Shown here: one piece after another, positions 4,555-58,358 of the stretch
How the letters are laid out: each line of letters begins with the position of its first letter
How positions within the stretch are numbered: position 1 is the stretch's first letter
Made by a program: the position numbers and the translations under genes
Notes under the pieces: model-generated
Databases searched by the model: none
The model's input: only the letters and a program-made list of their open reading frames with translations
Told to the model about the DNA's origin: nothing
IMG/VR virus record: IMGVR_UViG_3300032083_001532
Span: 1 to 58,474 of that record
DNA: 58,474 bases
Source: a virus
Taxonomy: Duplodnaviria; Caudoviricetes
Direction: 5' to 3' (one strand)

Positions 4555-4586
4555 AGGCCCTTCCCTTGTGGAGGGGCCTTTTTATT
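4555..4586 (+). terminator. intrinsic terminator immediately upstream of terL
   Basis: AGGCCCTTCC-CTTGT-GGAGGGGCCT stem (one G.U) followed by TTTTATT. Confidence 0.5.
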
Positions 4587-4589
4587 AAG

Positions 4590-33134: not shown

Positions 33135-33138
33135 AATC

Positions 33139-39100: not shown

Positions 39101-42100
39101 ACATTGAGATTGTCTTTGAGGGCGTTGGTCGGAATGAAGATGTCGCATCAAAATCGGCACAGCTATGGTACTATGATGCCATCACAGCAGGCAAAGGAGA
39201 GATGGATGCCACAGAAAGATACCTCCGGGGGCAGTTCTTCCCCGAAGAATTCGAGGTCACAGTCGGGGAAGACGGCTCTGTCGAAGCGCCGTTCGCCAAT
39301 GAGCCACACGCAGCATGGAGAAGGCCGGTCGCGCACGCCATACTCCGACGACTGGCAGTGGATGACGGAACATGGGGCAGAAACCTCTCCGACGCAGATC
39401 GTGCTGGGGTTCAGAAAAATCTGAACAAGATTTTCACCGAAGAAGCTATGCCTTTTGAACATCAAAAGGATAGCAAGCTTCGGAACGTTGCTGAATACAA
39501 CGCACAGTTTGCCAGCCAATCAGATCGCTTGGCTGACCTGCGCAAGTGGTCAAAGGTTGAAGACCTAAAGACCCTGCGGGAAGAACTGGAAATAGACCCT
39601 GACACAAAGCGGTTCTATTCACAGCCTTACGACGACAACCTGACCGAAGAGATGAATGCCGTGATGAACAAGCATTCCCCTCATCGTAAGCAGGCCACAG
39701 TCGGGCAAAGCATTCTTGATAGCTTACAGCAAAGGGGTGATTGGCTTACCGCCCTGCGTCAAAAGTTCATAGACAAGTACGACAAGATCGCCAAGAACAG
39801 CCAGCTTATTGCCCAGATGATGGGCGACGAAAAGATGTTGTACGCTGATAGCTCCGCAGCAGCAGCAGCTTACCTGTCTGATCGCGCCCGTGGCATCTTT
39901 GCTTCGGTGATCAAGGCTGGCGTACCCACTTATATAAATGGCGGGTTCAAGGTCGTTACGGAAATCGGTGGCCAGAAAGTCGGGGGTCTACTTGATATTC
40001 TGCAACCCCTTTACCAGAACGGATATAACACCAACCTTGTCCGGCAGTGGCAGACATATGGTATTGCACGTCGTGAGCAACAAATCCTGATAGATCAGGC
40101 GGCGGACCCTGACTACAAACCTGACTACGTTTTCCAGATGAGCAATGCCGAGCGCACAGCGGCACTCAATATTGCCAACGCCTACCCGGAAGTTCAGGTG
40201 GTGTTTGAAGCCTACAATGAATGGAACGGGCACACCGTCAAGTTCATGCGGGACACCGGTGTTATTGATGATGCCGCAGCAGATGAATGGATGCGTGGCT
40301 CATCATACATCCCGTTCTACCGGGAACTGGACGGAGAAGGTCCGCAAGGCCCCGTTGGCGTGCTTAGTGGTCTGGCAGACATTCCTACTCCGCGCAAACT
40401 AAAAGGCTCCACCGAGCGCCGTGTTGGCGACCCCATTGAGAACCTTGCCCGTAACGCTCAGGCGGCTATCACAGCAGGCATGAAGAATGTTGCTATGCAG
40501 AGGGCAATGCGTGACGCATACACGCTAGGGCAGGCTCGCAACCTGACGGCGGCAGTTGAAGCTGGTGAAATCTCCCGCGAACAGATGGAGAAGGACAGCA
40601 CCCACACCTACCGGCAGGACGGCAAGACGATCAACGTAGCAATATATGACCCGCTATTATTTGATGCAGTCAGTTCGGTTCATGAAGGTCGGCTCCCCGG
40701 CTGGGCTTCTATTCTGGCGGCACCATCAACCCTGTTGCGGGAAACGGTTACCCGTGATCCCGGCTTCATGCTGGCCAACATGCTTCGTGATACAGCCTCT
40801 GTCTGGGTCACGTCCGGTGCCAACATCACTCCGGTGGTTTCCACACTTAATAACTTTGTTCGGGAGAGCAAAGACTTCTTGGCTGGAAAGCAGGATGAAA
40901 ACCCGCTTGCGCTGGGCGGTGTTATTGGTGGTTATGACTTTTCTCAAGACCCCAAGAACATCAAGAAATGGATGGAACGGACCATGCGTGAGAAGGGCAT
41001 GTCCAAGAAAACCAACTGGGACTATTTCCGTCTTGTGTGGGATAAGGCAGGCGACCTAACTACAGCATCTGACGCAGCTACACGCATGGCTGTCTACAAC
41101 GATGTCCTCAAGGACACGGGCAACGAATACCAAGCCATGTATCAGGCGCTGGAAGTAATCAACTTCTCCCGGCGCGGATCGTCCCCCGTCATGCGGGTGA
41201 TGACTGCCATGATCCCGTTCCTGAACGCACGTATCCAAGGTCTGGATGTGCTGGCGCGGGCCATGGCTGGCACCTATTCAGCAAAAGATGTAAACAACCG
41301 GTCGGCTGCGACCATGCGCTTCCTGCTTCGTGGTGCCACCCTGACGGGCTTGTCTCTAGCATACTATGCGCTGATGTATGACGATGATGACTACCTGTCC
41401 AAGGGCATGGCCGAACGTGACGATCACTGGATTGTCCCTGTCGGTGAGGGTTTGCCCCCGGTCATGATCCCCATCCCGTTTGAAGTGGGCTTTATGTTCA
41501 AGGTTATCCCAGAGCGTCTTGCCGCCATGTTCGCAGGTGAAGACCTGCCACGCGATGTGTCCGCATCAATCCTTCGCGGGATTGGCACTACGCTTGAAAT
41601 GAACCCGGTGCCGCAGTTTGCCATGCCAGTGCTGGAAGCCACGATGAACTATTCTTTCTTCAAGCAGAAAGACATCGTGCCCTATTACATGGAGAACCTT
41701 GACCCGACCCTTGAAGCTCGCACCACCACGTCTGACACAGCCCGTCGCCTAGCCATGGGGGTGGATGCGGTGGCTCGTGGGCTTGGCCTTGCCAGCCCCG
41801 GTGAAGAAGCCGGTATGCTGGAGAGCTTCCGGTCGCCGCTCAAGATGGAGCAGATCATCAAGGGCTATACCGGCACCATCGGGACATACATTCTTGAAAC
41901 AACAGACGCGCTTGTGCGTATGGTTGAAGGTGCCCCCGAGCGTCCGGGCCGCAGGCTTGATCAGCAGCCCATCCTGAAAAGGTTCTTGTCTGCAAACACT
42001 GGCTCTGGCCAGTTGGAACAGTTTTATGAAATGCGTTCAGCAGTAAGGGAAGTGGCTGGAAGCATTCGTGAGCTTGAGGCGCGTGGTCGGTTTGATGATA

Positions 42101-42357
42101 TGGCTGAATATTACCAGACCTATGGCTGGCTGTTGCAGATGGACAATGCGCTGTCCAATATCGACGATACGCTGGGCAAATATCGAGACCTCATTGAGCT
42201 AATCTTCCGCGATCCAAACATGAGCGCGGAGGAAAAAGAAGGGTATCTTGAAGATATCATATCCGCCCGTTCAGAGGTTGTTAGCGTTGTCCCTGAACTG
42301 CGCAAGTTCCTTTACAAAGACATGAAGGAAGAATGGAAAAAATCCATGAACCCCTAG
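33139..42357 (+). CDS. giant polyvalent internal virion protein (HExxH peptidase, NUDIX, kinase-like, probable ADP-ribosyltransferase, LPD38-like)
   Basis: ~3070 aa; HEYTH at 35635; NUDIX box G.....LTLQQNARKEVYEETGL at ~36475; YIK...E...WD....DNML...IDQG kinase-like at ~37015-37690; LFR/SMS/EAE at ~37950-38155; IPIPFEVG...NPVP...NYSFF...IVP...SP...IKGYTG LPD38-like C-terminus. Confidence 0.85.
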   Translation: MANVIRVNAPDKSYDFKIAGDKPTEEEYQRMDAFLMDRYPDYQGRPPEPDLLDYPGEFFTAIGRGALDMGATTLRGMGAEELSDDLREFTAKNLARDPSFEDSTAITLGEGLGSTIPFLATATAPGRLAKVGLGFGLGGFAGSGEQAERIEAYEERTGEDVPKWKEYLSRSLGFGVGLTEMLPPFRILKGIPRNIPNSAKEFVGQSIMDVIKGGGEEGLQEAASGLLQDFIEAGIYNPDLNVGESMWEEFTLGAGVGGILTGAVNTYALPGRIRKARQQERDLRAGEQKEQEKVQVLTEAQIDAANAPNVLQPDMQMQPNESPGDFARRQMEAEYGPAPKNVPNVQYNPLQRQDGFWEILNDNGVAMGAPARTEAEAKERIDVYSQFAYQARVAEELANVTGGADSTTGQPTTATAGDIHQMLDEKNIKWDEDPDFMAFTKTITGKERLDDLTSYELGNLKNTLAPLPTQPSLRSFGDVQNDFRQNSEGTDGDAAKYSLPDIDPATVQPGQTVTLFDPMGTPVDVQAEAVSEAGSIIYTHPETGESNIADASEFGTKDPTSPLFVIESMPKKPEVREIPDNTLAWLDRRLSEKIDAHLNADRDAVSSEIFHFMRQQNAVRAEKSRRETSADSIEARSMNEQARSTERVPPTVEDTENAVERSADTNSEQMDQRHPEKKDEPSGPAVPEEAQREVEGIPAPDEKDAVPPEQRKRQKMKKGKPAKNAGKQTPEPVEVPEPEVRPEQEVATPMVRFNEDFEADTVKLEKEFQEKLNKLGASSVMVRLAKTLFTNKSGTRGAHGVFANKLIGLSLGHTDPNASYDKKMEALTPHFYHEYTHWLRTNDKFKPSEWRGLVAYSKRNKMPGQNLSIYEAARKVYTDGGTDLRRDSKARDRVEEEAVAKIFELATAGTIKLNGGPKAQHKEVMGFIEKLGDTLRGRNRNSVQSIFERFNAGQIAARPDKIRTFQALRRHGYPPISKPPSDAADEERRREEGRDVKTVRESNLTDKAKYSFDYMFEPDEAQPTMAFSGSDEDLNVDELPRELNGWSLEKIAPGDKEWAAYEDTPIMNEPPLPDLDGKTLSTGMVMIEPDGRVWITEPTNHFGGYEHTFPKGGMAEGLTLQQNARKEVYEETGLLARAASWLGDYEGDKSVTRYYIGMRHSGSPLDHGLETQSVKLVDFKELDSFLNKKRDKNISGDIFSLMNYGDSTLNATYNNFYGKDVNTFQPFDETMDAGDLEDLFNSALGAVTKDSEPQNTEPSVINAHHNVLADGDPLTGAPTNIFEYEMFNPTQRGSNLGATFTDSQGNRFYIKAYENPEQARQEVVASRLYQAAGIPAPRAFLVSTLDPNTADPFVFPGGMAPSETAVATRWVEGYSQNSTVLQNQTASLTDVHDGFVVDAWLGNWDVVGLDFDNMLVGEEAGAVIRIDQGGTLQFRAQGGSKPFTDEVLELDTMRDPQMAPQATRVFEGVTDEDLRTGAQRIMAIPDDVIYDIVNQAGADPSLVDTLIARKAYIADKVGVIKNSGVIVPDLGANVISFGDLKEIGMDWKASHREAFDAWEGNIQGPGNARAMDAWIKNNSETWQASLDFIHSRLRKLAPSGKIFLFRDPGGWGSYSGPDRAGMNWRFSEEHPYMSMSINHKFGSSGITGRFAATVDIEDTIGVTAGAWADEAEITVKRSGIEQTPFVTILNGDYGSAIVNPQSAKAALAGAAKTAQEIPGIAYPVYEGGAKYDQPSLVHQEETYQSHSDYGRNFQHYTGSMLTANFGGAVMQRAINDVVADGIAGARAENMPFFMAMERIADKDIDAFYKEHGRLPDFVRPGVDISLRPARIQGKKGMNEQASQGEMNRTLSRLLAGAGREVEVALFNQNDGSSLKTNAARIMWTPETQMEVKNLANAKSLEEFSEEVQKRQYEMHRKMSGLVRSIVSSKVTVQIPANITGKQISEFWRIAEEVGSAKEDVKQADEAFPVATKNNPFTYLEQQVGDKPYIEIVFEGVGRNEDVASKSAQLWYYDAITAGKGEMDATERYLRGQFFPEEFEVTVGEDGSVEAPFANEPHAAWRRPVAHAILRRLAVDDGTWGRNLSDADRAGVQKNLNKIFTEEAMPFEHQKDSKLRNVAEYNAQFASQSDRLADLRKWSKVEDLKTLREELEIDPDTKRFYSQPYDDNLTEEMNAVMNKHSPHRKQATVGQSILDSLQQRGDWLTALRQKFIDKYDKIAKNSQLIAQMMGDEKMLYADSSAAAAAYLSDRARGIFASVIKAGVPTYINGGFKVVTEIGGQKVGGLLDILQPLYQNGYNTNLVRQWQTYGIARREQQILIDQAADPDYKPDYVFQMSNAERTAALNIANAYPEVQVVFEAYNEWNGHTVKFMRDTGVIDDAAADEWMRGSSYIPFYRELDGEGPQGPVGVLSGLADIPTPRKLKGSTERRVGDPIENLARNAQAAITAGMKNVAMQRAMRDAYTLGQARNLTAAVEAGEISREQMEKDSTHTYRQDGKTINVAIYDPLLFDAVSSVHEGRLPGWASILAAPSTLLRETVTRDPGFMLANMLRDTASVWVTSGANITPVVSTLNNFVRESKDFLAGKQDENPLALGGVIGGYDFSQDPKNIKKWMERTMREKGMSKKTNWDYFRLVWDKAGDLTTASDAATRMAVYNDVLKDTGNEYQAMYQALEVINFSRRGSSPVMRVMTAMIPFLNARIQGLDVLARAMAGTYSAKDVNNRSAATMRFLLRGATLTGLSLAYYALMYDDDDYLSKGMAERDDHWIVPVGEGLPPVMIPIPFEVGFMFKVIPERLAAMFAGEDLPRDVSASILRGIGTTLEMNPVPQFAMPVLEATMNYSFFKQKDIVPYYMENLDPTLEARTTTSDTARRLAMGVDAVARGLGLASPGEEAGMLESFRSPLKMEQIIKGYTGTIGTYILETTDALVRMVEGAPERPGRRLDQQPILKRFLSANTGSGQLEQFYEMRSAVREVAGSIRELEARGRFDDMAEYYQTYGWLLQMDNALSNIDDTLGKYRDLIELIFRDPNMSAEEKEGYLEDIISARSEVVSVVPELRKFLYKDMKEEWKKSMNP

Positions 42358-46711: not shown

Positions 46712-48595
46712 TTGTCTACTACTTCACACGACAGCACACTTAACGACTTTGCTGAAACTTCACTACGCGATACAATTGTCTCAAAAGATTTGAGGCAAGG
46801 CCAGCATCGGCTCATCTGCCCGAACTGCTCACCGGGGCGAAAAAAATCATGGGAGCAATGCCTTTCCGTCTACATTGAACCGCACCGGGCGATGTATTCC
46901 TGCAAGCACTGCGCGTGGGAAGGCTCTGTGCCGCTGCGGGATAACATCGTTAATTTCAGGCCCAAGCAGCCGAAGGAAGAGGATGAAAAGGCGCTTGATC
47001 TGGGCTTCGACATCAGCCCACCCACGGAAAAACAATACCAGTACATGGAAAGCGTCAGGCATATACCGCGCACCACCGTCGATCACTACGAGCTATGCTC
47101 TGCCCAAAAATGGTTCCGGGCACACAAAGAAGAACGAGAGGCGTTAGGGTTCCCTTACCGTTCATCAGCAGCATCAGAGTTTCACGCCATCAAGTGGCGC
47201 AGCGACAAGAAGCAGTGGACACAGGATGGGGGTGCAAAAAGCTTCTTCGGCCTCAAGCAGTTTGAGCGGTCAGCATCCGGCCCCACCGAGGAAGACCCGC
47301 TCATCATCACGGAGGGTGAATTCGATGCGCTGGCAGCGCACGCAAGCGGATACCATCACGCCCTAAGCGTACCGAACGGGGCACCCATGAAACTAAGCAC
47401 ACAGAAGAAGGCTCCCGGCGACGACCGGAAATACCATTTCTTGTGGGCTGCTAGGAACTTGCTGGAAAATTGTGACAGGGCATATATTGCTTGTGATGCT
47501 GACGACCAAGGGGAAATCCTTGCGGAGGAACTGGGGCGCAGGATTGGCAAGATTAAATGCTGGCGCGTTAAGTACCCAGAGGACTGCAAAGACCTGAACG
47601 ATGTGCTGGTCAAGCACGGGAAGGATGAGGTCCAGAAGTGCATAAAGGATGCGGAACCCTTCCCGGTGTCAGGGCTTTACACGGTTGATGATTACCGTGA
47701 TCAGGTTAATGATCTTTATGAGAATGGCTTTGCCAAAGGGGCCACTATTGGCATTCCCGAAGTTGATGAGTTGATGACGATTGTTCCCGGCATGATGACG
47801 GTCGTGACCGGGGTGCCTTCGCACGGCAAATCAACTTTTGTGGACTACATGATGTTCCGTCTGGCTCGGGACCATGGGTGGCGGCACGCGGTCTGTTCAT
47901 TCGAGAACCCGCCATCCTTGCACATCGCAAAGCTGGCGCAGACGTTTACGCGCAAGCCTTTCTTCGATGGGCCGAACGAGCGAATGTCCCAATACGAAAA
48001 GGCGCTGGCTTTGGATTGGGTCAAGGATCGCTTTGTGTTCATCAGCGAGAGCGACGGGACGCCGCCTACGGTCGATAGCGTGCTTGAGCGTGCGAAGACT
48101 GCGGTCATGCGTTACGGGATAAACGGTCTGGTGATTGATCCGTATTCGCGCCTGAACGTCAAGGGCGAAGACGACACAGCAGGGATCGGTGACATGCTCA
48201 CGAAGGTGCAGGCGTTCGCAGCAGCGCACAGCGTCCATGTGTGGTTCGTGGCACACCCGAAGAAGCCGCAGTTTCCTGATGGGTATGTGCCAGCAGGCTA
48301 TGATATATCGGGGTCGGCCCACTGGTACAATCACACTGATTTTGGGGTTACCGTTCATCGCCCGGACAGGGAGAGCGCCAACGTAGAGGTACACGTTTGG
48401 AAGGTACGATGGGCAAACCTGCTTGGTAAACAGGGGCAAGCTGATATAAGATACGAACCTGTGACCAATCACTATTCGCAAAGGAATGGGTATGGCTACC
48501 AAGCGGAAGAGGAAGCGCAAAGTCCAGAGGAAGCCTTACGGCAGCGCGTCATCGACGGGGAGGCGCTCGAAGACCTCCCAGCATATCTCACTTGA
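46712..48595 (+). CDS. T7 gp4/Twinkle-type primase-helicase
   Basis: Zn finger CPNC...CKHC, TOPRIM ITEGEFDAL / D.D.QG / KDLND, Walker A TGVPSHGKST, VIDPY, VAHPKK, YDISGSAHW; TTG start after ACTGGAAGGGAAAAAC. Confidence 0.93.
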   Translation: MSTTSHDSTLNDFAETSLRDTIVSKDLRQGQHRLICPNCSPGRKKSWEQCLSVYIEPHRAMYSCKHCAWEGSVPLRDNIVNFRPKQPKEEDEKALDLGFDISPPTEKQYQYMESVRHIPRTTVDHYELCSAQKWFRAHKEEREALGFPYRSSAASEFHAIKWRSDKKQWTQDGGAKSFFGLKQFERSASGPTEEDPLIITEGEFDALAAHASGYHHALSVPNGAPMKLSTQKKAPGDDRKYHFLWAARNLLENCDRAYIACDADDQGEILAEELGRRIGKIKCWRVKYPEDCKDLNDVLVKHGKDEVQKCIKDAEPFPVSGLYTVDDYRDQVNDLYENGFAKGATIGIPEVDELMTIVPGMMTVVTGVPSHGKSTFVDYMMFRLARDHGWRHAVCSFENPPSLHIAKLAQTFTRKPFFDGPNERMSQYEKALALDWVKDRFVFISESDGTPPTVDSVLERAKTAVMRYGINGLVIDPYSRLNVKGEDDTAGIGDMLTKVQAFAAAHSVHVWFVAHPKKPQFPDGYVPAGYDISGSAHWYNHTDFGVTVHRPDRESANVEVHVWKVRWANLLGKQGQADIRYEPVTNHYSQRNGYGYQAEEEAQSPEEALRQRVIDGEALEDLPAYLT

Positions 48596-49088
48596 CTTCG
48601 GCACCCCAGAGGCTCGCAATCACAACACGATGCGTGTTGAGAATGTTGACCCCAAGGGCAACATTGTTCGGATCAGGAACCTAGATCAGACAGAATTTGA
48701 CAGGCTGGCCCTTGTTGGGGATATAACGCCAGACCAGTTTCAAGCGGGTCAGCAGTTCTCAAGCGCGTGTTGGAAGGCAGGGGGTTTTGTGAAGGCTGTG
48801 AATTGGGGGCGCACAGGTGGGAGCGCAGGTAACAGCCACGAAAGGCGAGCGGTCTTGTCGGCTATGGCGGCAGCAGAACCGCTTCACTACATGCAGAAGA
48901 ATTGCGGCAGGGATGTCGCGGGGTTGGTCGTTCGGGTGGCTATAGACCAAGAGCGATGCACGGGTAAGGCGCTGCAAGATTTACGGGGGGGGTTGGATGC
49001 GTTGGTGCGGTACTATTCCGCAGCCATAAAACGCAAACAAAAAAAGAGGGCGGCTGCTTTCGCAGCCGCCCTTTCTTCGGTCGGTTGA
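48492..49088 (+). CDS. DUF6456-like (GafA C-terminal-like) putative transcription regulator
   Basis: DRL...G.IT..QFQAG..F ... W ... LR.GLD.L..YY pattern; overlaps helicase 3' end; AAGGAA RBS. Confidence 0.55.
   Translation: MATKRKRKRKVQRKPYGSASSTGRRSKTSQHISLDFGTPEARNHNTMRVENVDPKGNIVRIRNLDQTEFDRLALVGDITPDQFQAGQQFSSACWKAGGFVKAVNWGRTGGSAGNSHERRAVLSAMAAAEPLHYMQKNCGRDVAGLVVRVAIDQERCTGKALQDLRGGLDALVRYYSAAIKRKQKKRAAAFAAALSSVG
49036..49078 (-). terminator. intrinsic terminator ending the early (- strand) region
   Basis: perfect AGGGCGGCTGC-TTTC-GCAGCCGCCCT stem; A-run on its left (U-tract on - strand), TTCTT on its right. Confidence 0.75.
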
Positions 49089-49131
49089 GTAACCTGCTAT
49101 TCAGGAAGTGCAATCCACCATGTAGTTGGGT

Positions 49132-49503
49132 TTATCCCCCATAGTTTTTTCCTTCCATTTCCTGAACGTCATCCTGTGCTTCGTACATGCTGTTCCATAC
49201 TTGGTGCAACATGCGCATCCGGTAATGATGGTCATCATCAAATTGGGACGCTTTGGCGACACGGTTCTTGAAGTTGGTGTAAGTGATGTTGTTGATTTCC
49301 TTTGTCAGTTCTTCAACAACGATTGGCTTGTCGATAAAGGCGCGGAACCGATAGTCCGTCCCGGCACCCTCAATTACATTTGCGTTTGTGTGCCCAAAGA
49401 TACTTTCGATGTCTCCGGGGAACCGGGCGCGGACGCAGAAGCGTTCGCTGTTATTCTTGTCTTCGACAACAGACAAGACTGCGTTTTCAGTAAATAACCA
49501 CAT
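49132..49503 (-). CDS. conserved hypothetical phage protein
   Basis: MW.F.....SVV.........VRAR..GDIE.....TDYRFRA......I.Y.NFK pattern. Confidence 0.75.
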   Translation of the reverse strand: MWLFTENAVLSVVEDKNNSERFCVRARFPGDIESIFGHTNANVIEGAGTDYRFRAFIDKPIVVEELTKEINNITYTNFKNRVAKASQFDDDHHYRMRMLHQVWNSMYEAQDDVQEMEGKNYGG

Positions 49504-49529
49504 ATGTTTTTCCTTCCAGTGATTTGACG

Positions 49530-49558
49530 TTTGTATAGTAAAGTAGTAGCCGTGTCAA
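49530..49558 (-). promoter_or_regulatory. sigma70-type promoter
   Basis: TTGACA-17 bp-TACAAA on - strand upstream of the 49503 ATG. Confidence 0.55.
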
Positions 49559-49718
49559 GGGCTATACGCAAAGGCGTGCTAAAGTTTTATTGGTTTTCCC
49601 TTCCAAGTTAATAGTGATTGGTCACAAATAACCTAACGAATAAATGGCAGGGACCGGGATTAGCGGTAGCGAACCGCCTACCCGGCTTACGACACCCAGT
49701 TGCCGACACCGCGCAGTG

Positions 49719-49895
49719 TTAGCGTTTCATGTTCATGTCTACCTGATCTTGTTCAGTGCGTGACAGGGACACCTTTAGTTTGTTGTTGCTGGCTTCGACA
49801 GTTACGCTCCAACCATCTTGGCGCAACTCATCAATTGCTTGCCCAAAGGGTTCTAGCGCGGCGTTTACTTTGTCTACCGCCTCTTGCCTGTTCAT
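49719..49895 (-). CDS. small hypothetical protein
   Basis: GGAG RBS then MNRQEAVDKVNAALEPFG; 58 aa. Confidence 0.55.
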   Translation of the reverse strand: MNRQEAVDKVNAALEPFGQAIDELRQDGWSVTVEASNNKLKVSLSRTEQDQVDMNMKR

Positions 49896-50139
49896 TGGTT
49901 TTTCTCCATCCCAACAGAATGTTGGTGCTATAGAAGTCTCTGGAACGACCGTCTCTCTCGTACAATAGCGCAACTCTAGCGCACGGCACCACACGAAAGC
50001 GAGCGCCAAATACACGAAAGCGCATATTGGTGAAACGTTCGCCGGGACATGCTCGTGCTAGTCGTTTCAGTTCATCAAGGGTGATTGGCCTGCCCCTTTT
50101 GGGGACAGGCTTTTCAAGGATGCGATTATACATCCTCAT
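49831..50139 (-). CDS. Arg-rich hypothetical protein
   Basis: ATGA-coupled to the 50136 stop; 3' end overlaps the next gene. Confidence 0.45.
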   Translation of the reverse strand: MRMYNRILEKPVPKRGRPITLDELKRLARACPGERFTNMRFRVFGARFRVVPCARVALLYERDGRSRDFYSTNILLGWRKTNEQARGGRQSKRRARTLWASN

Positions 50140-50804
50140 TGTGATCCCACAGCGTCAAGCAGGGCTTTATCGGGAAGCGGCGCACCCCAGACAGTTTCTG
50201 GTTTTGTTCCAGACGTGGTTAGTTCTTTTATTAAGGCGTATGTGGCTTGACCGCGCAGGTCCATCAGCCAATCATAGGCTTTGCTGTTTCGCCAGCCGAC
50301 ATCATTACAGGCTTGATATTCAAAGCAATTTACGCTTGAGATAACCTGAGTTGGTTCAAATGCTGGCCAGTAATTATTTTCAAGAACGCTTATAGCGGCT
50401 TCCTTGTAGTTCGCTGAAGCAACTTCATCCTGTCCGTACCGGGCCTGCATGGAAAGCTGATTGCTTTCGATTAGCATGTCCAGAATTCTGTGAATGCTTT
50501 CCCCTGTATAGGGGCGATCAGAATAGCTTTCGGACGCCCGGACAAGGTACGCCAGATGGTGCGGGTCTACATAAAATGCGAATGGTTTGATCTCCTCTTT
50601 ACTCTCCACAACTTTCCAGTTTTTATCAGTGATGACGTAGGGCCTCTCAAAGCCATCCAGCGCCTCAAAGGTTTCTTTGAGTGTTGGGAACCCATCCCAT
50701 ACTTGTGGCGTGCCGCCCCACCTTTTCAGGTAGCGCAAGTGGTCGTTTACGGAGCCTTGCTCGTAATCTCCATCAGACCAGAACACAAAATAGTTCAAGT
50801 TCAT
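50136..50804 (-). CDS. hypothetical phage early protein
   Basis: repeat-element RBS; N..S..ARY ... C.EYQAC...W..S.A pattern. Confidence 0.7.
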   Translation of the reverse strand: MNLNYFVFWSDGDYEQGSVNDHLRYLKRWGGTPQVWDGFPTLKETFEALDGFERPYVITDKNWKVVESKEEIKPFAFYVDPHHLAYLVRASESYSDRPYTGESIHRILDMLIESNQLSMQARYGQDEVASANYKEAAISVLENNYWPAFEPTQVISSVNCFEYQACNDVGWRNSKAYDWLMDLRGQATYALIKELTTSGTKPETVWGAPLPDKALLDAVGSQ

Positions 50805-50914
50805 GGTTCTTCCTTCCAGTTAAAATGTTATCAGTCACAATTTGCGACTAGGGTTATTGAAAATAACCTAACGAATGGGGTGGTGCGCAGTAGATGTACC
50901 GCGCACCACCAGCG

Positions 50915-51154
50915 TTACCCGATCCCCAAAGCGTCAGCAACCTTGTCTTTGTTCATAACGTCGGTGCGGCTCATGTAGACAGCGGGACCGTCCAATACGG
51001 CCTTAAAGCCTTCGCCGTGGGCACGCTGGGCGTACCATTGGCCATGGTCGTTGCAGTTGATATAGGCCACTAGGTTCGACATTGAGCCAGTGTGACCCGC
51101 ATACATGTGGTGCTGATTGCGGTGGCTGTTCAGGATTATGTAGTTCGTGTCCAT
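50915..51154 (-). CDS. small early protein
   Basis: ATG directly after ACTGGAAGGAAAACCA. Confidence 0.65.
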   Translation of the reverse strand: MDTNYIILNSHRNQHHMYAGHTGSMSNLVAYINCNDHGQWYAQRAHGEGFKAVLDGPAVYMSRTDVMNKDKVADALGIG

Positions 51155-51249
51155 TGGTTTTCCTTCCAGTTGATAGTGATTGGTCATAAATAACCTAACC
51201 GGGTAGCAGTTAGATCACTTACGTTCTCTAACTGCGTCCCCGAATGATT

Positions 51250-51828
51250 TTAGTTCATGCCAAGTTTGTCTTTGGCGTCATGGATGGTGGAAATCAGGCG
51301 TTGTCTTAGGGCCTTGTCGCCACGGTCCATAACCGCCGCAAGTTGCTCTGCCTCTGGCAGATAGACCTTCGCAAAGTCAGGGTCGTGATCGGCAATATCA
51401 AGTGTGTTGTCTATCAAGTCAGCATACTTGATGGTTTGTGTCGCATAGCCTTGAGAAGAGGCTCGGACAGCTTCGGCAGCTTTACGGGCGGGCCTGTTCA
51501 TGTCAGGATACGCTTCGTGTGTGTAACGATCCGTCAGATCATCCACCCATTCAGCCACAATCGGCCCAAATTGTTCATCAATTTCACGCCTTGTCACTCC
51601 GCAATCTTCGATTGTGTCATGCAAGACTGCGGCACAAAGCATAGCTTGGTTTGCCAAAGCTATGTGCTTCATGTCGTGGCCTGAGTTTATAAGCGTGTGT
51701 GCCACGTTCAGCGGATGCTGAATATATGGCGTGTCTGTGTATTTGCGGACTTGCCCATCATGGACTTCGGTCGCAAAATCAATAGCACGCTTAAATCCCG
51801 GCGAAGCCGTTATAGGATATGTCGTCAT
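51250..51828 (-). CDS. HD-domain hydrolase, SpoT/Mesh1-like small alarmone hydrolase
   Basis: A..FA...H.GQ.RK....PYI.HP..VA, AAVLHDTIEDC, V..LTD, IK.AD..DN. Confidence 0.85.
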   Translation of the reverse strand: MTTYPITASPGFKRAIDFATEVHDGQVRKYTDTPYIQHPLNVAHTLINSGHDMKHIALANQAMLCAAVLHDTIEDCGVTRREIDEQFGPIVAEWVDDLTDRYTHEAYPDMNRPARKAAEAVRASSQGYATQTIKYADLIDNTLDIADHDPDFAKVYLPEAEQLAAVMDRGDKALRQRLISTIHDAKDKLGMN

Positions 51829-51907
51829 GGTGTTTTCCCTTCCAAGTAAATAGTGATTTGTCATAAATTGACTAACGGGGACAGGGTGTTAGCCCTGCCC
51901 CCAATGC

Positions 51908-53437
51908 TTAGGCAGCGATTTGTGAGACATCTTCCTCGAAGAGGATGATCTGGCCAAAAGGCACCGGGTACTGGCCAGCCTTCAAGGCTTTGCCATAGCA
52001 CCCATGATGCTTGCGCCAGTTGACGCCGTTTCGATCAGACATCCAGTAGACTGGATAGTCTGGAGCGTCCCCAAAGTCACCATCGTATGCTATCAGGTCA
52101 GTGAAGTAGATTGCGCCCTTGATGTTGGCGCATTCTTCGTTGAGGTAATCGAACCCCGGATAAAACCGGGTGCCACCACCGCCAACGGGGTTGAATTTGA
52201 TTTCTTCACCAAGGGTGAAGGTATCAACCCCCTTCACGTCATAATCCACGTAGAGAACGTGGACAGTCTGTGGCGCAGCTTCTTCGACAAGTTCGTTGAG
52301 CTTTTCTTCGAAAAGCGCAAGCAAGTCTTCGTTGATAGATGCCGACGTGTCGATCAGCACTGCCAGTTCGCCTGCGTCTTCCTTCACAATGGAAGGAAGA
52401 TATACGTCACTGGCAATCCGGCGACGATTGGGACGGTTCCAAGTCGTAGACTTGGGGAACATCTGCGAGAATGCTTCCTGCAACTCGTCGCGCCAGTCGA
52501 TGGTCTTGACCTTCAACGCCTCATTAACGATGCGTTGAATGCCGCCATCACCGGCACCCTTGGTTGCGTTCTGCACTTGCGCAGCCTGCACCACGTTGAT
52601 CTGGGTGTCTTTTTCAAGCTTGTCCAGATCAGCCTGTGAAAACGGTTTACCGTCGTCATCGCATGGTGGCAGGATGTCCCCAAAGAAGTCGTCGTCTCCA
52701 AAGGTAACATCGTCACCTTCGGTGTCGTCGTCACCATTGCCGCCACTGTCACTGTCGTCACCTTCGGTGTCGTCGTCACCGGAGCCACCGTTACCTTCGG
52801 TATCGGCGTCTTCGCTGTCGTCGTCATCGTTGCCGGGATCATTACTGTTACCAGTAATATCTTCGTCGTCTTGGTCGTCACCTTCGGTGTCGCGATCACC
52901 AGACGGCTTGCCGTGGTAGCCACCTTCGCCATCTTCGCAACCTTCGCCATCTTCGCCATCTTCGCGCGGCTTGCCCCACGGTTCGGCAATAGGCTCTTTA
53001 GCCTTCCACAAGATACTATAAGTATCTTCTGCGGAACCGTTCAGTTCAGGGTCGTAAAGGCCCTTGCCGTGGGGGAATTCAAACAGCGGCTTACCCTTGC
53101 TATCTCTGGCATCCACAAGGATGCTGTTGATAGAGTAGTCCGTTGCCTCACCCCATGTGTCACGATCACGATTGCCCATCCGCACAGAGTGCAGGCAGGC
53201 AATATGTGACAGTTCATGTGCTGCCAGAGTAACAACCTCACCGATGGTGAGGATGTCGAGAAAATCCGGGTTGTAGTATACCCGGACGCCATCAGTCGCC
53301 GCTGTTTTGATAGGAAAACCGCCAAGGGTTTTCTTTGCTATCACATACGGCACCTTGACAGCCAAGGTTCCATAGAATGGCGAATGACGGAGCAAGCGAG
53401 TGTAAGCTTCGCTTAATTTTGCTTCTGGTGTCATCAT
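51908..53437 (-). CDS. DUF2201-type metallopeptidase + vWA domain protein
   Basis: TAATDG..VYYNP.F, AHELSH (HExxH), A.D..IN, acidic linker, W.RPNRR, IDTSASI (MIDAS), GGGGT.F, YFTD. Confidence 0.9.
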   Translation of the reverse strand: MMTPEAKLSEAYTRLLRHSPFYGTLAVKVPYVIAKKTLGGFPIKTAATDGVRVYYNPDFLDILTIGEVVTLAAHELSHIACLHSVRMGNRDRDTWGEATDYSINSILVDARDSKGKPLFEFPHGKGLYDPELNGSAEDTYSILWKAKEPIAEPWGKPREDGEDGEGCEDGEGGYHGKPSGDRDTEGDDQDDEDITGNSNDPGNDDDDSEDADTEGNGGSGDDDTEGDDSDSGGNGDDDTEGDDVTFGDDDFFGDILPPCDDDGKPFSQADLDKLEKDTQINVVQAAQVQNATKGAGDGGIQRIVNEALKVKTIDWRDELQEAFSQMFPKSTTWNRPNRRRIASDVYLPSIVKEDAGELAVLIDTSASINEDLLALFEEKLNELVEEAAPQTVHVLYVDYDVKGVDTFTLGEEIKFNPVGGGGTRFYPGFDYLNEECANIKGAIYFTDLIAYDGDFGDAPDYPVYWMSDRNGVNWRKHHGCYGKALKAGQYPVPFGQIILFEEDVSQIAA

Positions 53438-53558
53438 GGTTGATGTTTCCCTTCCAGTAATTGTTACCAGTCACAATTTGTGACCGGGGCTATTGAAAAT
53501 AACCTAACCGGGATGCGGTTGGATCACTTACGTTCTCCAACCACAGCCCGAATGATTT

Positions 53559-54452
53559 TTAGGTGGATTTGCCGCCACCCGACAAAAAGATGCTTGCCAT
53601 TTCGGCAACATCTTCTGCGGCATCAGCCGCTTTGTCACGAAGATCAGGATCGGATTTCAATTGATCCCTAGAATAGGGAGCAATGTCATCCATGATCCGC
53701 TTTGCGGCCCTTGTCAGGGCCGGGTCGTTGGTCAGGTTCAGATGGGGCAGGGCTTCGGCCAGATCAACCACATGGTTGATTGTGGCGTTGTAGATGTCCC
53801 GCTTGCCACCGTTGCCGGTGTCCTGCCCATAATTGCGCAGGGCGTCGGCAAGATTGCCGACCAGATCGACCACCTTTGTGGCAGGCTCCAAAACAGCGTC
53901 GTTCAGACGCTGGTTCAGCTTTTCGTTCACCGATGCTTCGATAGCGGCGAGAGCATCCTTGGATGCTTTCACGCGGATGTCGTCGGTGTCTGGCACGGCT
54001 TGGTATTCGACTTCACAGACAAATTTGTCCCGAATGTCATCCTTTGAAGGATAGTCCCCTTCATTAAACGCGGTATTCAAGATCAATCTTGCTTCGTCAA
54101 CGGCTTCGCCGTACCCGACTACGAACTGGTCAGCAGCACTATCAAATGCCAGTTTGGCATCCTTGATTGCTTCGTCGCATTTGGTGAATGCGGACATCGG
54201 CAATAGCCGCCAACCACTTTCGTCCCATGGCAGGGTCCATTCTTTCATGGCACGCCGGACATGTTCGCTATGCGTTTTCATGTCCTTGAGTGATTGCACA
54301 TCGACCAGCGGCTTACTGACTTTGAAGTCAGCGCTTGACTGGTGTTTGCTCTGCACTTCCGTGGCAAGCTGGTCATCCAGCTTGCGACCAGACCATTTTT
54401 TGATAGTCACCTTTACCAAGGTGCATCGTTGAGATAAGTCTTTCACGATCAT
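53559..54452 (-). CDS. DUF3150-like protein
   Basis: LV.V.I..WSG.KLD, SK.L, TLPW...G.RLLP, F...DYP, LNLT.DP.L; sits between AAA and vWA genes. Confidence 0.7.
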   Translation of the reverse strand: MIVKDLSQRCTLVKVTIKKWSGRKLDDQLATEVQSKHQSSADFKVSKPLVDVQSLKDMKTHSEHVRRAMKEWTLPWDESGWRLLPMSAFTKCDEAIKDAKLAFDSAADQFVVGYGEAVDEARLILNTAFNEGDYPSKDDIRDKFVCEVEYQAVPDTDDIRVKASKDALAAIEASVNEKLNQRLNDAVLEPATKVVDLVGNLADALRNYGQDTGNGGKRDIYNATINHVVDLAEALPHLNLTNDPALTRAAKRIMDDIAPYSRDQLKSDPDLRDKAADAAEDVAEMASIFLSGGGKST

Positions 54453-54559
54453 GGTTTTTTCCCTTCCAGTTTAGTGACCAGTCACAGTTTGTGACCGGGA
54501 CCAGTGTAAATGGCCTAACCGGGACAATGCTAATGCATTGCCCCGAATACCTTCAAATA

Positions 54560-55582
54560 TTATTGGTTGCCGAATTCGTTCCGCATTTTGACGCCCCAGT
54601 CACTTTCAAGAATTGAAGCATTCAATGCTTCAATCATTTCGACAGTGACCGATTGGAATTCACGGGGAAGACGTTCCACGTATGCTCCGAATGCGTCAAC
54701 TGTTTCGTCTTTGATTGCGTTAGCAATCAAGCCGGTAACAGCATAGAGTGCCGATGGGTCCGTTGGAACCAAGGCACCCTGCGGGTTGTTGCGAATTTCA
54801 GCCGGTGTTGGCAAGCTATCAATGGTCCGTAGGAACCCAATGAATTCCTTGCTTGCGGCTTCGCCAAGATAGCCAAGAATACCCTCTTCGAGTTCATTCT
54901 GTGGCATATCAAGCTGCATAATGTCAGAGACATTATGCCATGTCCGCAATGTCGGGAATGTGTCAGCTTTCGGATCGAAATCCACCAGCAATTCCGGGCG
55001 ACCTTCGGTGAACACCAGCACTTCCGGCACCAAGTTTAACTTGGTAGCCAGTGCCCGGAAACAATCGGTAGAGGCGACCACATCAATGTGGTTCCACCGG
55101 GTTTTGACCTGTGTACCCATTTCATGGGTGCCTGCCTTGTGTTCCCGTTTGTTGGATGCTCCAACAAATGACACGCCTTTAGGCAGCGGATATTGGCCGA
55201 TACGACGATCCATCACCATCGTGCCAGCCGCATTCTGCGTCATCTGGAACGCTTGCGAGAATTCATCCATAAAGATGATGCCCTGCCAGTCAGGCTCTTT
55301 GTGGAGTTCCACAAAGCGACCGTTTAGTTCATCCCAAAAGGCAGGTGGATACCACCTAGTGGTGCCATCTTCGACCTTTGGCGTGCCGTTGAAGTCAACA
55401 GCGTCCATCATGGACAGATCGCAAACGATCAGTCCATAATCGGGGATGTGGTGCGTCCTGATGTGCTTCGCCACATTGCGAACAGTCGTCGTTTTCCCGA
55501 TACCGGGAGCCGACCACATAAAGACGTTCTTGCGAGCAAGAACCATGGCCGTGATGTAGTTTTGTGTTTGGCTAATAAGCAT
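54560..55582 (-). CDS. MoxR/AAA_5-type AAA+ ATPase
   Basis: WSAPGIGKT Walker A, D..D..G.P, IIFMDE Walker B, ASN, R..H, FPT.RTW. Confidence 0.9.
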   Translation of the reverse strand: MLISQTQNYITAMVLARKNVFMWSAPGIGKTTTVRNVAKHIRTHHIPDYGLIVCDLSMMDAVDFNGTPKVEDGTTRWYPPAFWDELNGRFVELHKEPDWQGIIFMDEFSQAFQMTQNAAGTMVMDRRIGQYPLPKGVSFVGASNKREHKAGTHEMGTQVKTRWNHIDVVASTDCFRALATKLNLVPEVLVFTEGRPELLVDFDPKADTFPTLRTWHNVSDIMQLDMPQNELEEGILGYLGEAASKEFIGFLRTIDSLPTPAEIRNNPQGALVPTDPSALYAVTGLIANAIKDETVDAFGAYVERLPREFQSVTVEMIEALNASILESDWGVKMRNEFGNQ

Positions 55583-55744
55583 GGCTTATTTTTCCCTTCC
55601 AGTAGTAGTGACCAGTCACAATTTGAGACTGGGGTTATTGAAAATAACCTAACGAATAACTTAACAAAATCAGTGACCTAGCCCCCTATCACCGTAAGGT
55701 TCTAGGGGGCGTAGGCACTGGAAGGGCACCATTGCCCAACGTTA

Positions 55745-56035
55745 CTAGCCTACGGCTAGTTCAGCCTGTCGCCGTGAGGCTCTGGCCTTGTTCAGGTTTT
55801 CAGCCGATACGATAGAGTATCGGCGCTGATGCACTTCGCCTTCGGAGCCAAGCACCGGGAACTTGATTGTTCCATTCTTTTCCATCTGGAAAAGAACGCG
55901 CATGGCACCCTTGGTGGTTCGGTATGGCTCATTATCCAAGTGTAACGCCCATTCAAAAGCCTTGGCTTTGCGGTTGTAGCACTTGAACTTGCCGGAGTTC
56001 CAGCCGCCAAATCCATGCTCAACAATGTAGAACAT
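55745..56035 (-). CDS. small early protein
   Basis: GGGAG RBS before ATG 56035. Confidence 0.6.
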   Translation of the reverse strand: MFYIVEHGFGGWNSGKFKCYNRKAKAFEWALHLDNEPYRTTKGAMRVLFQMEKNGTIKFPVLGSEGEVHQRRYSIVSAENLNKARASRRQAELAVG

Positions 56036-56045
56036 TGTGTTCTCC

Positions 56046-56231
56046 CTATCTGTTGATAAAGTCGTTGATTGAGGCACCTTCTTCGGAGAAGAAGCCTACG
56101 TTCATCACGTCAACACCGCCAAGCCAAGCCCCAAACAATGAGGCGGTCAGGCCCAAGAGGATAAACAAGTTTATCCCGCATAGGACCGCAAGCGTTGTTG
56201 CCAGTGGTGTGACATATTTAATGTTTTTCAC
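56046..56231 (-). CDS. small membrane protein
   Basis: GTG start after repeat-element RBS; long hydrophobic stretch. Confidence 0.6.
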   Translation of the reverse strand: MKNIKYVTPLATTLAVLCGINLFILLGLTASLFGAWLGGVDVMNVGFFSEEGASINDFINR

Positions 56232-56298
56232 GGTTTGTTCCTTCCAGTTGGTAATAACCTAACCGGAACAAGGCGTTAGCCTTGTCCCGAATGCAGTA

Positions 56299-56550
56299 TT
56301 AGTGGGCTGGCAGCACTTCGGCTACCACATCGACCACTTCGGCACCCTTATAGGGTGAGCCGTAGAGGTCGGCACAGCCGCTAAAGCGGCCTTCAAAATC
56401 ACCGTCTTCGTCACGGACAACATCAATTACCCGCAGGCCAGCAAGATAGACTTCTATCTTGCTAATCTCATTAACGGTTAAGCCTTCGGCGTCACCGTTA
56501 ATCAGGTAGCAGATTGTTGCCATAGGTACTGTCACTTCAGTGGTGTTCAT
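56299..56550 (-). CDS. small early protein
   Basis: repeat-element RBS; P...CYLINGD..GL...E pattern. Confidence 0.7.
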   Translation of the reverse strand: MNTTEVTVPMATICYLINGDAEGLTVNEISKIEVYLAGLRVIDVVRDEDGDFEGRFSGCADLYGSPYKGAEVVDVVAEVLPAH

Positions 56551-56617
56551 GGTGTTTTCCTTCCAGTTGGTAATAACCTAACCGGAACAACACGTTAGTG
56601 TTGTCCCGAATGCAGTA

Positions 56618-56827
56618 TTAGTCTATCCAAGGGGTGAACTCTCGTTCACCAGCAAAGATCAGCAGGTACTGTTCCCTGTAAGGGGACAGATTGAGCAGGG
56701 CACCAAATTCAAATCCAAGGATGTTGAATTTGAGTGTGCGAGTGGTCTCATAGACCAGTTCCTTAGTGTTGTTTCCCTGTTCGTCAGTATCCTTACGGAT
56801 AAAGTGTTGAGTATGTTTGTTGTACAT
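56618..56827 (-). CDS. small early protein
   Basis: AAGGGAG RBS before ATG 56827; flanked by repeat elements. Confidence 0.6.
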   Translation of the reverse strand: MYNKHTQHFIRKDTDEQGNNTKELVYETTRTLKFNILGFEFGALLNLSPYREQYLLIFAGEREFTPWID

Positions 56828-56884
56828 TCTATGTACTCCCTTTTGTTTGAAATAACTAAACCGGAACAAGGGGTTACAAGTAAC

Positions 56885-57315
56885 CCCCTGTTCCGAATAA
56901 ACAGCGTTTAACAGCCTGAAAAATAGGCTACGCTGTCCTTTTCTGGAAAAGGAAAGGATTGCACTTCCTGCCATGCCTCCGGCATTATTGGGATTGTCTT
57001 TGCTGCGCACAGTCCAGAGGACCATGCGAGGCAAAGCCAGCGCCCACACGGAGCATGTGTCGTCACGCACAGCAGGTTACTCGAACGGGCCGAGGTCCAA
57101 CTTCCGTCCGGCACCCTTTAGGGTAACCGACAGACAAGGCTTCACACGAAGCAGTCAATGTCCCACTTTGGAATGGTCTTTGGCCTCTCTCTCATGTGAA
57201 TACCAGAGGTATCGTGTAAGAGACAAACCGCATCAGCAATCGCCGCGGACCGAAGGTATTTATGCCGTGGCCCCTTCGGAGGGCCGTGGCTCTCGACGTT
57301 GCCGCCGAAAGCCCC
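56885..57315 (-). ncRNA. long structured leader / candidate ncRNA
   Basis: no credible ORF; successive stems with GCAA and cUUCGg tetraloops and G.U pairs on the - strand; begins just after a TTGACA promoter. Confidence 0.55.
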
Positions 57316-57318
57316 ATT

Positions 57319-57347
57319 ACTAAACCAAACGGTAAAGCATTTGTCAA
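57319..57347 (-). promoter_or_regulatory. candidate early promoter
   Basis: TTGACA-17 bp-TTTAGT on - strand; -35 overlapped by inverted repeat CAAGCCC-TTTA-GGGCTTG (57345-57362). Confidence 0.5.
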
Positions 57348-57560
57348 GCCCTTTAGGGCTTGTTTGATTGCCAAGCCTTAAAAATGGCGATTTTTGTGGT
57401 CCTTGCGGGATCATGATGGTTTCCTGCGACAATGCGTGAAAAACCTCTGGTTTTCGCACGTTGTCATGTGAACCGTGGTGCAGGATTGGTGACGGGTCAC
57501 AATTCGTTGCCGTTCTTGGTGGTTGGGGTTGAGGTTTTGGGCCTTTCACACGGGTCTGCC

Positions 57561-57623
57561 TAGGCGTGCACACGTAGGCAGAGGCGTGCAGGCGCGTGAT
57601 GCGTAGGCAGAGGCGTGCACACA
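57561..57623 (+). repeat. short direct repeats upstream of terS
   Basis: CGTAGGCAGAGGCGTGCA at 57573-57590 and 57602-57619; AGGCGTGCA three times (57562, 57582, 57611). Confidence 0.7.
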
Positions 57624-57764
57624 AGGGGGGATTGCAGCGGGAAGAATAGGGGGTTAAGATTGGTGCGCGGTAAGTAAACGCGAAATCTTGTGCGCGGGAT
57701 TGGAACTCGATCATATGTTGCTTCGGTGTCCAGTGTGCCCGCATAACCCCGAAGGGGCGGTTTT

Positions 57765-58358
57765 ATGGATGACATCCAAGACAAAGCATACAGGGCTTTA
57801 GAAGACATAGAGATAGTAAGAGCAGATAGTAATCCACCAGAGGTGGACGCTGAAAAGCTCAATAGTTCCACGGCACTACCCCCGAAGGGGAAGGGTAGAA
57901 AGAGACTAACTAAGCAGATGAACGACTTCGCAGGCAACATCCTTAAAGGGATGAGCCAGAGTGAAGCCTACAAAGCTGCATATAATGCAGAGAACATGAA
58001 GAAAGCTTCGATTGCGACTGAGGCTTGGAAGCTCATGCGACATCCTGAGGTGGCCCAGATCATAGGGGCAGGGATGGAGAAGAAGAGGGAGGTTAATAGC
58101 ATCAGCGGGGATATGATGCGCTCTAAGGTGTTGGAACGCTTATGGTTTGAGGCAACCGAAGCCCGCAATGATGGTGCACGTATCAGAGCACTGGAGCTAC
58201 TAGGTAAGGTGCCAGAAGTCGGACTGTTCACTGCAAGTGAAAAGGAAAAGCCCAACGATATCAAGGCATTGGAGCGCATTGTCGGAGACAAGCTGAAAGC
58301 ATTAGGGCTGGATGCTACTATCGTGGACAGCAATAACCCTTCTAAATCAAAGATTTAG
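57765..58358 (+). CDS. terS: terminase small subunit
   Basis: LT.QM..FA..I..G.SQSEAYK.AY........A.KL...P.V, then VL..L..EA......RIRALELLGK...VGLF. Confidence 0.85.
   Translation: MDDIQDKAYRALEDIEIVRADSNPPEVDAEKLNSSTALPPKGKGRKRLTKQMNDFAGNILKGMSQSEAYKAAYNAENMKKASIATEAWKLMRHPEVAQIIGAGMEKKREVNSISGDMMRSKVLERLWFEATEARNDGARIRALELLGKVPEVGLFTASEKEKPNDIKALERIVGDKLKALGLDATIVDSNNPSKSKI

Follow-up and report, generated by a model that had tools for sequence, protein, structure and literature searches.

[quoted passage not shown] Of several possible explanations for this match, we favour one where the trailer of the last gene pairs with the leader, and we put the probability of this reading at roughly 40%. 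The stretch analysed, referred to here as the window, is the whole IMG/VR record of 58,474 bp, which represents a phage genome with an estimated completeness of 96%; the DNA runs that contain this sequence are labelled as seawater and estuary metagenomes, and none of the runs listed is recorded as RNA.

Most genes of the phage are encoded on the plus strand. The minus strand block comprises the genes from 49132 to 57310, with the leader at its head and a terminator at 49047, and codes for an AAA ATPase, a DUF3150 protein, a DUF2201 metallopeptidase/VWA protein, an HD-domain protein and several small orphans. The genes referred to below are:

4566–6140, + strand: large terminase
6140–8716, + strand: portal
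33106–42357, + strand: protein of 3083 aa
46712–48595, + strand: primase/helicase
48630–49088, + strand: orphan ORF of 152 aa as called, or of 200 aa from an ATG at 48486
49132–49503, − strand: p123, last gene of the block, from a widespread family of small phage proteins with unassigned fold
56618–56827, − strand: p69, first gene past the leader, with its ATG at 56827
57765–58358, + strand: small terminase gene (TerS), divergent from the block across about 940 nt that hold no convincing gene

The p123 family is represented by 29 clusters in the protein collection, by 141 IMG/VR stretches and by 363 metagenome stretches, and its members carry the motifs MW[LI]F, DYRFRA and YTNFK. Searches with p123 gave no Pfam, PHROG or PDB match of note, and its AlphaFold model (pLDDT 89) has no PDB match at E ≤0.001. 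In the gene-poor stretch of 940 nt between TerS and the leader, an 18-nt direct repeat (57573–57619) is present in two exact copies 29 nt apart, with a third, partial copy close by; these could be iterons or packaging-related repeats. The ORF of 200 aa called at 57142–57744 is without a family and non-coding in appearance. Elsewhere in the genome, the C-terminal 700 residues of the 3083-aa protein match PHROGs of unknown function, while a short stretch near its residues 1090–1160 is Nudix-like, and a 377-aa ORF on the plus strand (23427–24293) contains many direct repeats of 16–32 nt (for example 23964–23995 and 24171–24202), which suggests a repetitive, collagen-like structural protein.

A first-pass annotation of this DNA had described three short blocks, read on the plus strand at 49080–49116 in the order block 1, block 2, ATT, block 3, that recur in the same order on the minus strand leader with 42 and 100 nt between them. 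Letters, coordinates, order and distances were all found to be exact:

49080–49086, + strand: block 1 of the short copy, 7 nt (GTCGGTT), the last two codons and first stop letter of the plus strand ORF
49087–49098, + strand: block 2 of the short copy, 12 nt (GAGTAACCTGCT)
49102–49116, + strand: block 3 of the short copy, 15 nt (CAGGAAGTGCAATCC)
57131–57125, − strand: block 1 of the leader, 7 nt, 10 nt past the stop of a called but doubtful 200-aa ORF
57082–57071, − strand: block 2 of the leader, 12 nt, the 5' strand in the closing stem of a 100-nt domain
56970–56956, − strand: block 3 of the leader, 15 nt, the 3' strand of the closing stem and a mostly unpaired AAUCC tail

Blocks 2 and 3 each have exactly two perfect copies in the window, and near-matches to the blocks occur at chance level (4 vs 2.99 expected with ≤2 mismatches, 5 vs 2.30 with ≤3). 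Two-block matches were scored as chains of two exact seeds of ≥9 nt in either orientation, with gaps of ≤10 nt on one side and ≤200 nt on the other, and the best such chain equalled the 27 matched letters in one of 150 simulated windows (first-order Markov). Chains of 22–23 letters are common in the simulations, and the real window has a few of these. The match of block 2 reaches 14 nt when 49099–49100 are included, with one A/G difference (A at 49099, G at 57070 in the leader). Block 1 adds little and probably matches by coincidence: from the size of the search space we estimate a chance of about 0.1 for a match of this kind, the block is part of a coding sequence, and the match is lost in the related strain X3 described below. 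The earlier statement that three ordered exact matches are very unlikely to occur by chance can be retained for blocks 2 and 3, whereas block 1 carries no weight. The 27-letter match almost certainly reflects a common origin of the two sites, because that many perfect letters cannot come from point mutation.

The RNA elements at the two ends of the block, as read from the minus strand, are:

49131–49073, − strand: 3' untranslated trailer of p123, 59 nt, with the reverse complements of blocks 3, 2 and 1
49072–49047, − strand: intrinsic terminator hairpin of 11 pairs, 9 of them G-C, with the tail CTTTTTTTGT (7 T), which ends the block
57310–56828, − strand: structured leader, or separate non-coding RNA, of about 450 nt, with a putative 5' end
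57070–56971, − strand: 100-nt folded domain between blocks 2 and 3
56896–56861, − strand: hairpin of 16 pairs with the T-rich tail TTTAGTTATT, at the end of the leader; the ribosome site and the ATG at 56827 follow about 30 nt later

The plus strand ORF runs through the terminator hairpin and ends with a TGA at 49086–49088. The short copy had been placed just after this stop codon, which in fact is part of the element and spans the junction between blocks 1 and 2. The description of the ORF as DUF6456-like is likewise unsupported, as Pfam searches with its 200-aa form and with a 162-aa sub-fragment (48600–49088) gave no family at E values up to 10, and the only homologue found was the protein itself. 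A duplication of a gene together with its flank was considered and rejected, as the two 200-aa ORFs that end beside block 1, one at each site, are unrelated.

On the minus strand RNA, the p123 stop codon (49134–49132) is followed by 15 nt, antisense block 3, AAU, antisense blocks 2 and 1, a further 6 nt, the hairpin and 7 U. A G+C-rich hairpin followed by a U run is the hallmark of an intrinsic (Rho-independent) terminator, and this one is the strongest minus strand terminator of the region; on the plus side its T tail is poor, and it was not reported as a plus strand terminator. The trailer is placed as are small RNAs derived from 3' untranslated regions, between a stop codon and an intrinsic terminator on the same strand, the terminator being common to both, and it holds a potential seed of 12 (14) + 15 nt with perfect complementarity to the minus strand leader. 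The short copy is also predicted to form a helix of its own, between blocks 2 and 3 around a 5-nt loop.

The leader region folds well on the minus strand (z −6.0, with none of 100 shuffles as good) and equally well on the plus strand (z −6.45); because of this, the leader RNA is assigned to its strand from gene context alone. The minimum-energy fold pairs block 2 with block 3 (GUA/UGC, CCUG/CAGG and two more pairs), which closes the 100-nt domain. The hairpin at the end of the leader and the hairpin at 49072–49047 top the list of terminator-like structures for 49000–57400, where they are the two longest-stemmed minus strand sites. No Rfam family reached its gathering score, either in the whole window or in the two regions searched at relaxed thresholds. 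Among the sub-threshold candidates, the CsrB/CsrC family (RF00084) was rejected, as CsrC scored 30.7 bits vs a gathering score of 61 in an alignment carried by the terminator hairpin; BjrC68 (26.4 bits vs 39) was likewise driven by the terminator hairpin, and CyVA-1 was rejected as well.

Contigs from four DNA runs (X2, X3, X6 and X8) were compared with the window over 48900–57400; X6 gives no cover at the short copy and X8 none at either the short copy or the leader blocks. The X2 contigs have the window sequence at both sites. X3 is a mosaic relative, in which both sites are present at equal depth (7.2 and 7.16). The first-pass annotation had held that relatives which keep the leader and lose the short copy would speak against a function of the pair, and X3 holds both.

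X3 differs substantially from the window around the two sites. Its leader (56830–57307) carries 63 substitutions and 19 gap letters, and the genes next after the leader, p69 and p83 (56268–56830), are swapped for 232 other letters. At the short copy only 48936–49113 aligns, the sequence beyond being clipped. The 66 nt at 48966–49031 have 11 substitutions (7 of them at codon position 3 of the plus strand ORF, by our own count), and 49032–49116 has two listed changes, 49073 T>C and 49083 G>A, along with a presumed 49114 T>C: the X3 letters past 49113 start with CCC, which we read as this change with the rest of block 3 kept. The short copy retains 35 of its 37 letters inside otherwise replaced sequence, forming a preserved island together with the terminator, and block 2 is unchanged. 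Judged by X3, block 1 is not maintained: the short copy has 49083 G>A, and the leader has lost 2 nt at 57128.

Among the 12 leader indels listed for X3, none falls in blocks 2 and 3, and there are three partner pairs. The single-base deletions at 57035 and 56999 are predicted pair partners inside the 100-nt domain, the deletions at 56870 and 56888 take out one G-C pair of the terminal hairpin, and the indels at 57143 and 57148 are partners in a small hairpin; three or more such pairs arise with a probability of 0.0045 (20,000 random placements). Because the X3 indels fall on predicted pair partners, the leader fold, including the 100-nt domain, is under selection. A 194-nt contig from X6 (56945–57138) has 10 differences from the window.

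The conservation of the short copy has to be read with caution. X3 tracts elsewhere have as few as 1 difference in 1636 positions, and because X3 is mosaic, its low divergence at the short copy may be due to recent exchange and not to selection. The mosaicism of X3 is strong, with sharp breakpoints at the leader edges and at the right edge of block 3, and at least about 326 extra letters separate the short copy from the conserved portion of p123 in this strain.

Another unexpected finding is a repeated cassette within the minus strand block. Copies of its motif, GGTTAGGTTATT, with 0–2 mismatches occupy 10 positions, of which two are neighbours ahead of the AAA gene. The copies are confined to the minus strand of this block, within 49627–56862, with 15 matches in all vs 2.4 expected by chance in the window. 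The cassette stands before nearly every gene of the block and consists of a variable G+C-rich hairpin, (C/G)GTTAGGTTATT, often TTCAATAACCCC, and the ribosome site ACTGGAAGG, and it looks like a terminator-plus-promoter or processing cassette. A single early transcript of 8 kb, as assumed in the first-pass annotation, is doubtful when nearly every gene has its own hairpin-plus-GGTTAGGTTATT cassette, and the block is probably not one transcript. Because the cassettes punctuate the block, action of the trailer in trans, or on partial read-through transcripts, is favoured over a helix spanning 8 kb.

Two further repeats were noted in this part of the genome. The palindrome GTCACAAATTGTGAC occurs on the minus strand with 0–1 mismatch in four gaps of the block (50834–50848, 53470–53484, 54481–54495 and 55615–55629), placed between the cassette motif and the ribosome site, with a weaker copy upstream of the leader (57496–57510), and it looks like an operator for a dimeric regulator. 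The operator-like sequence TGTGACCAATCACTATT forms an exact inverted repeat of 17 nt, with one copy at 48460–48476 (+), within the 3' end of the primase/helicase gene and shortly ahead of the orphan ORF, and the other at 49626–49610 (−), in the cassette upstream of p123; the two copies are roughly symmetric around the shared terminator.

Given the observed complementarity, the position of the antisense blocks between stop codon and terminator, the leader fold and the retention of both sites in a diverged strain, we consider pairing of the minus strand trailer with the leader the best single reading at the level of the sequence. Pairing between trailer and leader was already one of two readings in the first-pass annotation; the anatomy, with the antisense blocks between the stop at 49132 and the terminator, fits it best, while the single 8-kb transcript on which it was set is doubtful. 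Action in trans would be the likeliest mode, with the trailer as a fragment of the 3' end to which the terminator hairpin and the U-tail are still attached. Blocks 2 and 3 make up the closing stem, one strand each, and this places them next to each other, such that one uninterrupted antisense stretch can span both. On pairing, the closing stem would be opened and a duplex of about 27–29 bp would form, from which the 100-nt domain would protrude as a third arm; the predicted duplex has 14 + 15 bp, broken by the three-way junction, with a 3-nt bulge where the domain sits. In one outcome a double-strand RNase would cleave the duplex, and in another the leader would refold, with altered read-through of the terminal hairpin into p69 and beyond. 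Either outcome would signal to the head of the block that its last gene was transcribed. We infer the existence of either RNA with these ends, their meeting and all of these downstream effects.

Cofolding of trailer and leader gives a gain of −33.5 kcal/mol vs −7.6 ± 2.7 (best −15.4) for 100 shuffled seeds, a value that is not independent evidence because it follows from the complementarity. The three observed differences (49099 A against the leader G, and 49083 G>A and 49114 T>C in X3) would all leave G-U pairs on minus strand RNAs and mismatches on plus strand RNAs, a weak pointer to the minus strand; given that all are transitions, the odds of all three being G-U-compatible on the minus strand RNAs are about 1 in 8. 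Several properties argue against the pairing model. Perfect identity over 27 of 27 letters is commoner for a recent copy than for a long-selected pair acting in trans, block 1 is not maintained, the leader region folds equally well on either strand, and the targets in the leader are mostly paired, with a mean unpaired probability of 0.25 for block 2 and 0.45 for block 3. A more far-reaching version, which we consider rather unlikely, is that the leader, about 450 nt long, represents a structured phage RNA of a new kind, in which a stem at the foot of a domain would dock the trailer of the last gene, thereby cleaving or refolding the leader and resetting the genes behind it.

Relatives of the window in the collections were distant. 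Comparison of both regions with INPHARED phages by blastn gave nothing, and IMG/VR scans with p123, the AAA protein and TerS gave no relative. The 27-mer of the short copy had no match in the collection scan, the 15-mer of block 3 matched 55 unrelated IMG/VR stretches, none of which also has block 2, and the 18-mer of the cassette was found in 6 stretches without protein kinship to the window. The collection scans returned distant relatives only, with records very near the window excluded. The protein P0034 is 69% identical to p123, and the scan with it gave relatives of only 29–36%; alignment scans with p123 gave 80 IMG/VR loci (≤48% identity) and 80 metagenome loci (≤51%), the latter by a peptide pattern that does not fit the p123 of the window itself, so that close kin were missed, and a scan of genome contigs gave 8 loci (≤51%). 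No leader- or trailer-like DNA was found in 166 loci (L058–L223, with L224–L235 outside the test). When the called leader ORFs were looked up exactly, the yield was limited to an identical copy, on a contig of 54,472 bp, and a 90-aa fragment with 96% identity; a search for homologues of the 68-aa frame across blocks 2 and 3 gave nothing.

In 88 loci with a p123 homologue, the 110 nt past the gene were compared with 4–10 kb of upstream sequence. Complementarity exceeded all 40 null windows of the same locus in 4 of the 88, and those examined (one of the pair L077/L078, L085 and L098) were traced to coding or palindromic sequence and rejected. In the distant phages of this set, 3' flanks are not generally complementary to the sequence upstream, which argues against the pairing model.

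The main rival explanation, which we regard as unlikely but as one to be taken seriously, sees the short copy as a remnant without function. It would stem from an inverted duplication of part of the leader region at the other boundary of the block, or be a leftover of recombination there. Replication slippage would have excised the hairpin-forming interiors and left the feet of the stems, and the remnant would persist in the only non-coding gap there. Excision of the folded interior between the strands of the closing stem yields exactly block 2, a short loop and block 3, and the perfect identity suits a recent copy. The phage also encodes an Erf-like annealing protein and an exonuclease, and X3 is heavily mosaic, with one of its breakpoints at the right edge of block 3. 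However, three rare events would be needed, and its position directly ahead of a terminator with a U-tail would have to be coincidental; moreover, X3 keeps the 35 of 37 letters while their neighbours are replaced or about 17% diverged.

The other reading of the first-pass annotation, in which the two sites share a motif read in the same sense, we consider improbable. Here a protein would recognise a helix of blocks 2 and 3 (GUA/UGC plus CCUG/CAGG, with a 1x3 internal loop) in two settings, at the base of the leader domain and, as a minimal hairpin, in plus strand RNA just past the stop of the plus strand ORF. The same helix is predicted at both sites, where the 41 nt at 49080–49120 of the plus strand fold at −8.3 kcal/mol, and this ORF crosses the terminator hairpin, so plus strand transcripts must reach at least 49088; the T tail of the 49047–49072 hairpin is poor on that side. 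The helix is weak, though, with no third copy in the genome and no candidate binding protein, and the motif is altered by the presumed 49114 T>C in X3 and by the A/G difference at 49099, both of which are neutral for antisense pairing.

That two unrelated short matches fell in order into two non-coding gaps by chance is very unlikely. One simulated window in 150 did equal the two-block total, very many windows were screened, and the scan with the 15-mer found 55 stretches that all lack block 2. Against this, both sites belong to the small non-coding fraction of the genome and mark the two boundaries of one gene block, the matching letters form both sides of a single stem, block 2 matches over 14 nt when extended, and the short copy is kept in X3.

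It is highly unlikely that a phage protein binds the blocks as double-stranded DNA at both boundaries, marking or insulating the gene block irrespective of orientation: the inverted 17-mer TGTGACCAATCACTATT does illustrate that regulatory DNA words recur on both strands here, but the blocks are non-palindromic and not repeated elsewhere, and their 100-bp separation in the leader suits a folded single strand better than duplex DNA. Equally hard to credit is the mirror image on the plus strand, where the tail of a plus strand replication transcript, with the sense blocks, would pair with a plus strand leader upstream of TerS (57765) that has the antisense blocks: most genes are on that strand, which on a circular map runs from TerS to the plus strand ORF, and the leader region folds as well there as on the minus strand, but the blocks lie 630–800 nt before TerS with a terminator-like plus strand hairpin (57345–57362) in between, the seed comes after the hairpin on the plus strand and not before it, and the three observed differences are mismatches on plus strand RNAs.

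The proposed pairing of trailer and leader is reminiscent of several known systems. In rRNA operons, leader and trailer of one precursor form stems, a continuous duplex of about 20 bp or more, that are cut by RNase III. As there, the flanks of a long transcribed region are complementary in the phage, such that a long duplex for a double-strand RNase is possible; unlike the rRNA operons with their one continuous precursor, the phage block is punctuated by terminator-like hairpins and promoter-like cassettes, and its duplex would be interrupted by the protruding 100-nt domain. In the retroregulation of int in lambda, sib is a local hairpin that is completed by read-through, and in the icaR mRNA of Staphylococcus the 5' and 3' untranslated regions pair within a single short mRNA. 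In both of these, as in our proposal, a 3'-proximal RNA element controls an upstream message via a double-stranded structure, whereas the phage sites are 8 kb apart and the target would be the stem that closes a domain.

Closer in layout are OppZ and CarZ of Vibrio cholerae and PcrX of the Rhodobacter puf operon, autoregulatory small RNAs that are cut from operon 3' ends; stop codon, seed region and terminator follow each other in the standard arrangement of small RNAs from mRNA 3' ends, as reviewed in PMC9438474. Like these, the phage regulator would be the 3' end of the mRNA of the last gene, with which it shares the terminator, and it would target RNA of its own block, so that feedback requires transcription to the block end (compare PMC9438474). 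Leader and trailer lie on the same strand and in the same gene block, as an OppZ-type regulator of its own transcript would require, while the cassettes suggest several units. Compared with the systems described in PMC9438474, the phage target would be a long structured leader and not an intergenic ribosome site, the complementarity of 27 perfect letters, split across a domain, is far above the usual seed, and the block belongs to a phage and not to a cellular operon, and is probably divided into several transcription units.

Whatever the origin of the match, this uncultured marine phage has a large leader RNA with a fold backed by compensated deletions in a natural variant, and the leader, together with the repeated cassette, offers handles on the timing of phage genes where no host is in culture. 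A remnant, if that is what the short copy is, would provide a clear example of folded interiors being lost while the feet of their stems survive. If the pairing of trailer and leader is real, operon autoregulation by RNAs derived from 3' ends would extend from cellular operons to a phage gene block, with an unusual target, the closing stem of a folded leader domain in place of a ribosome site. Should the leader indeed be reset by the trailer of the last gene, this would constitute a feedback loop on transcript completion, made of RNA alone, in a virus.
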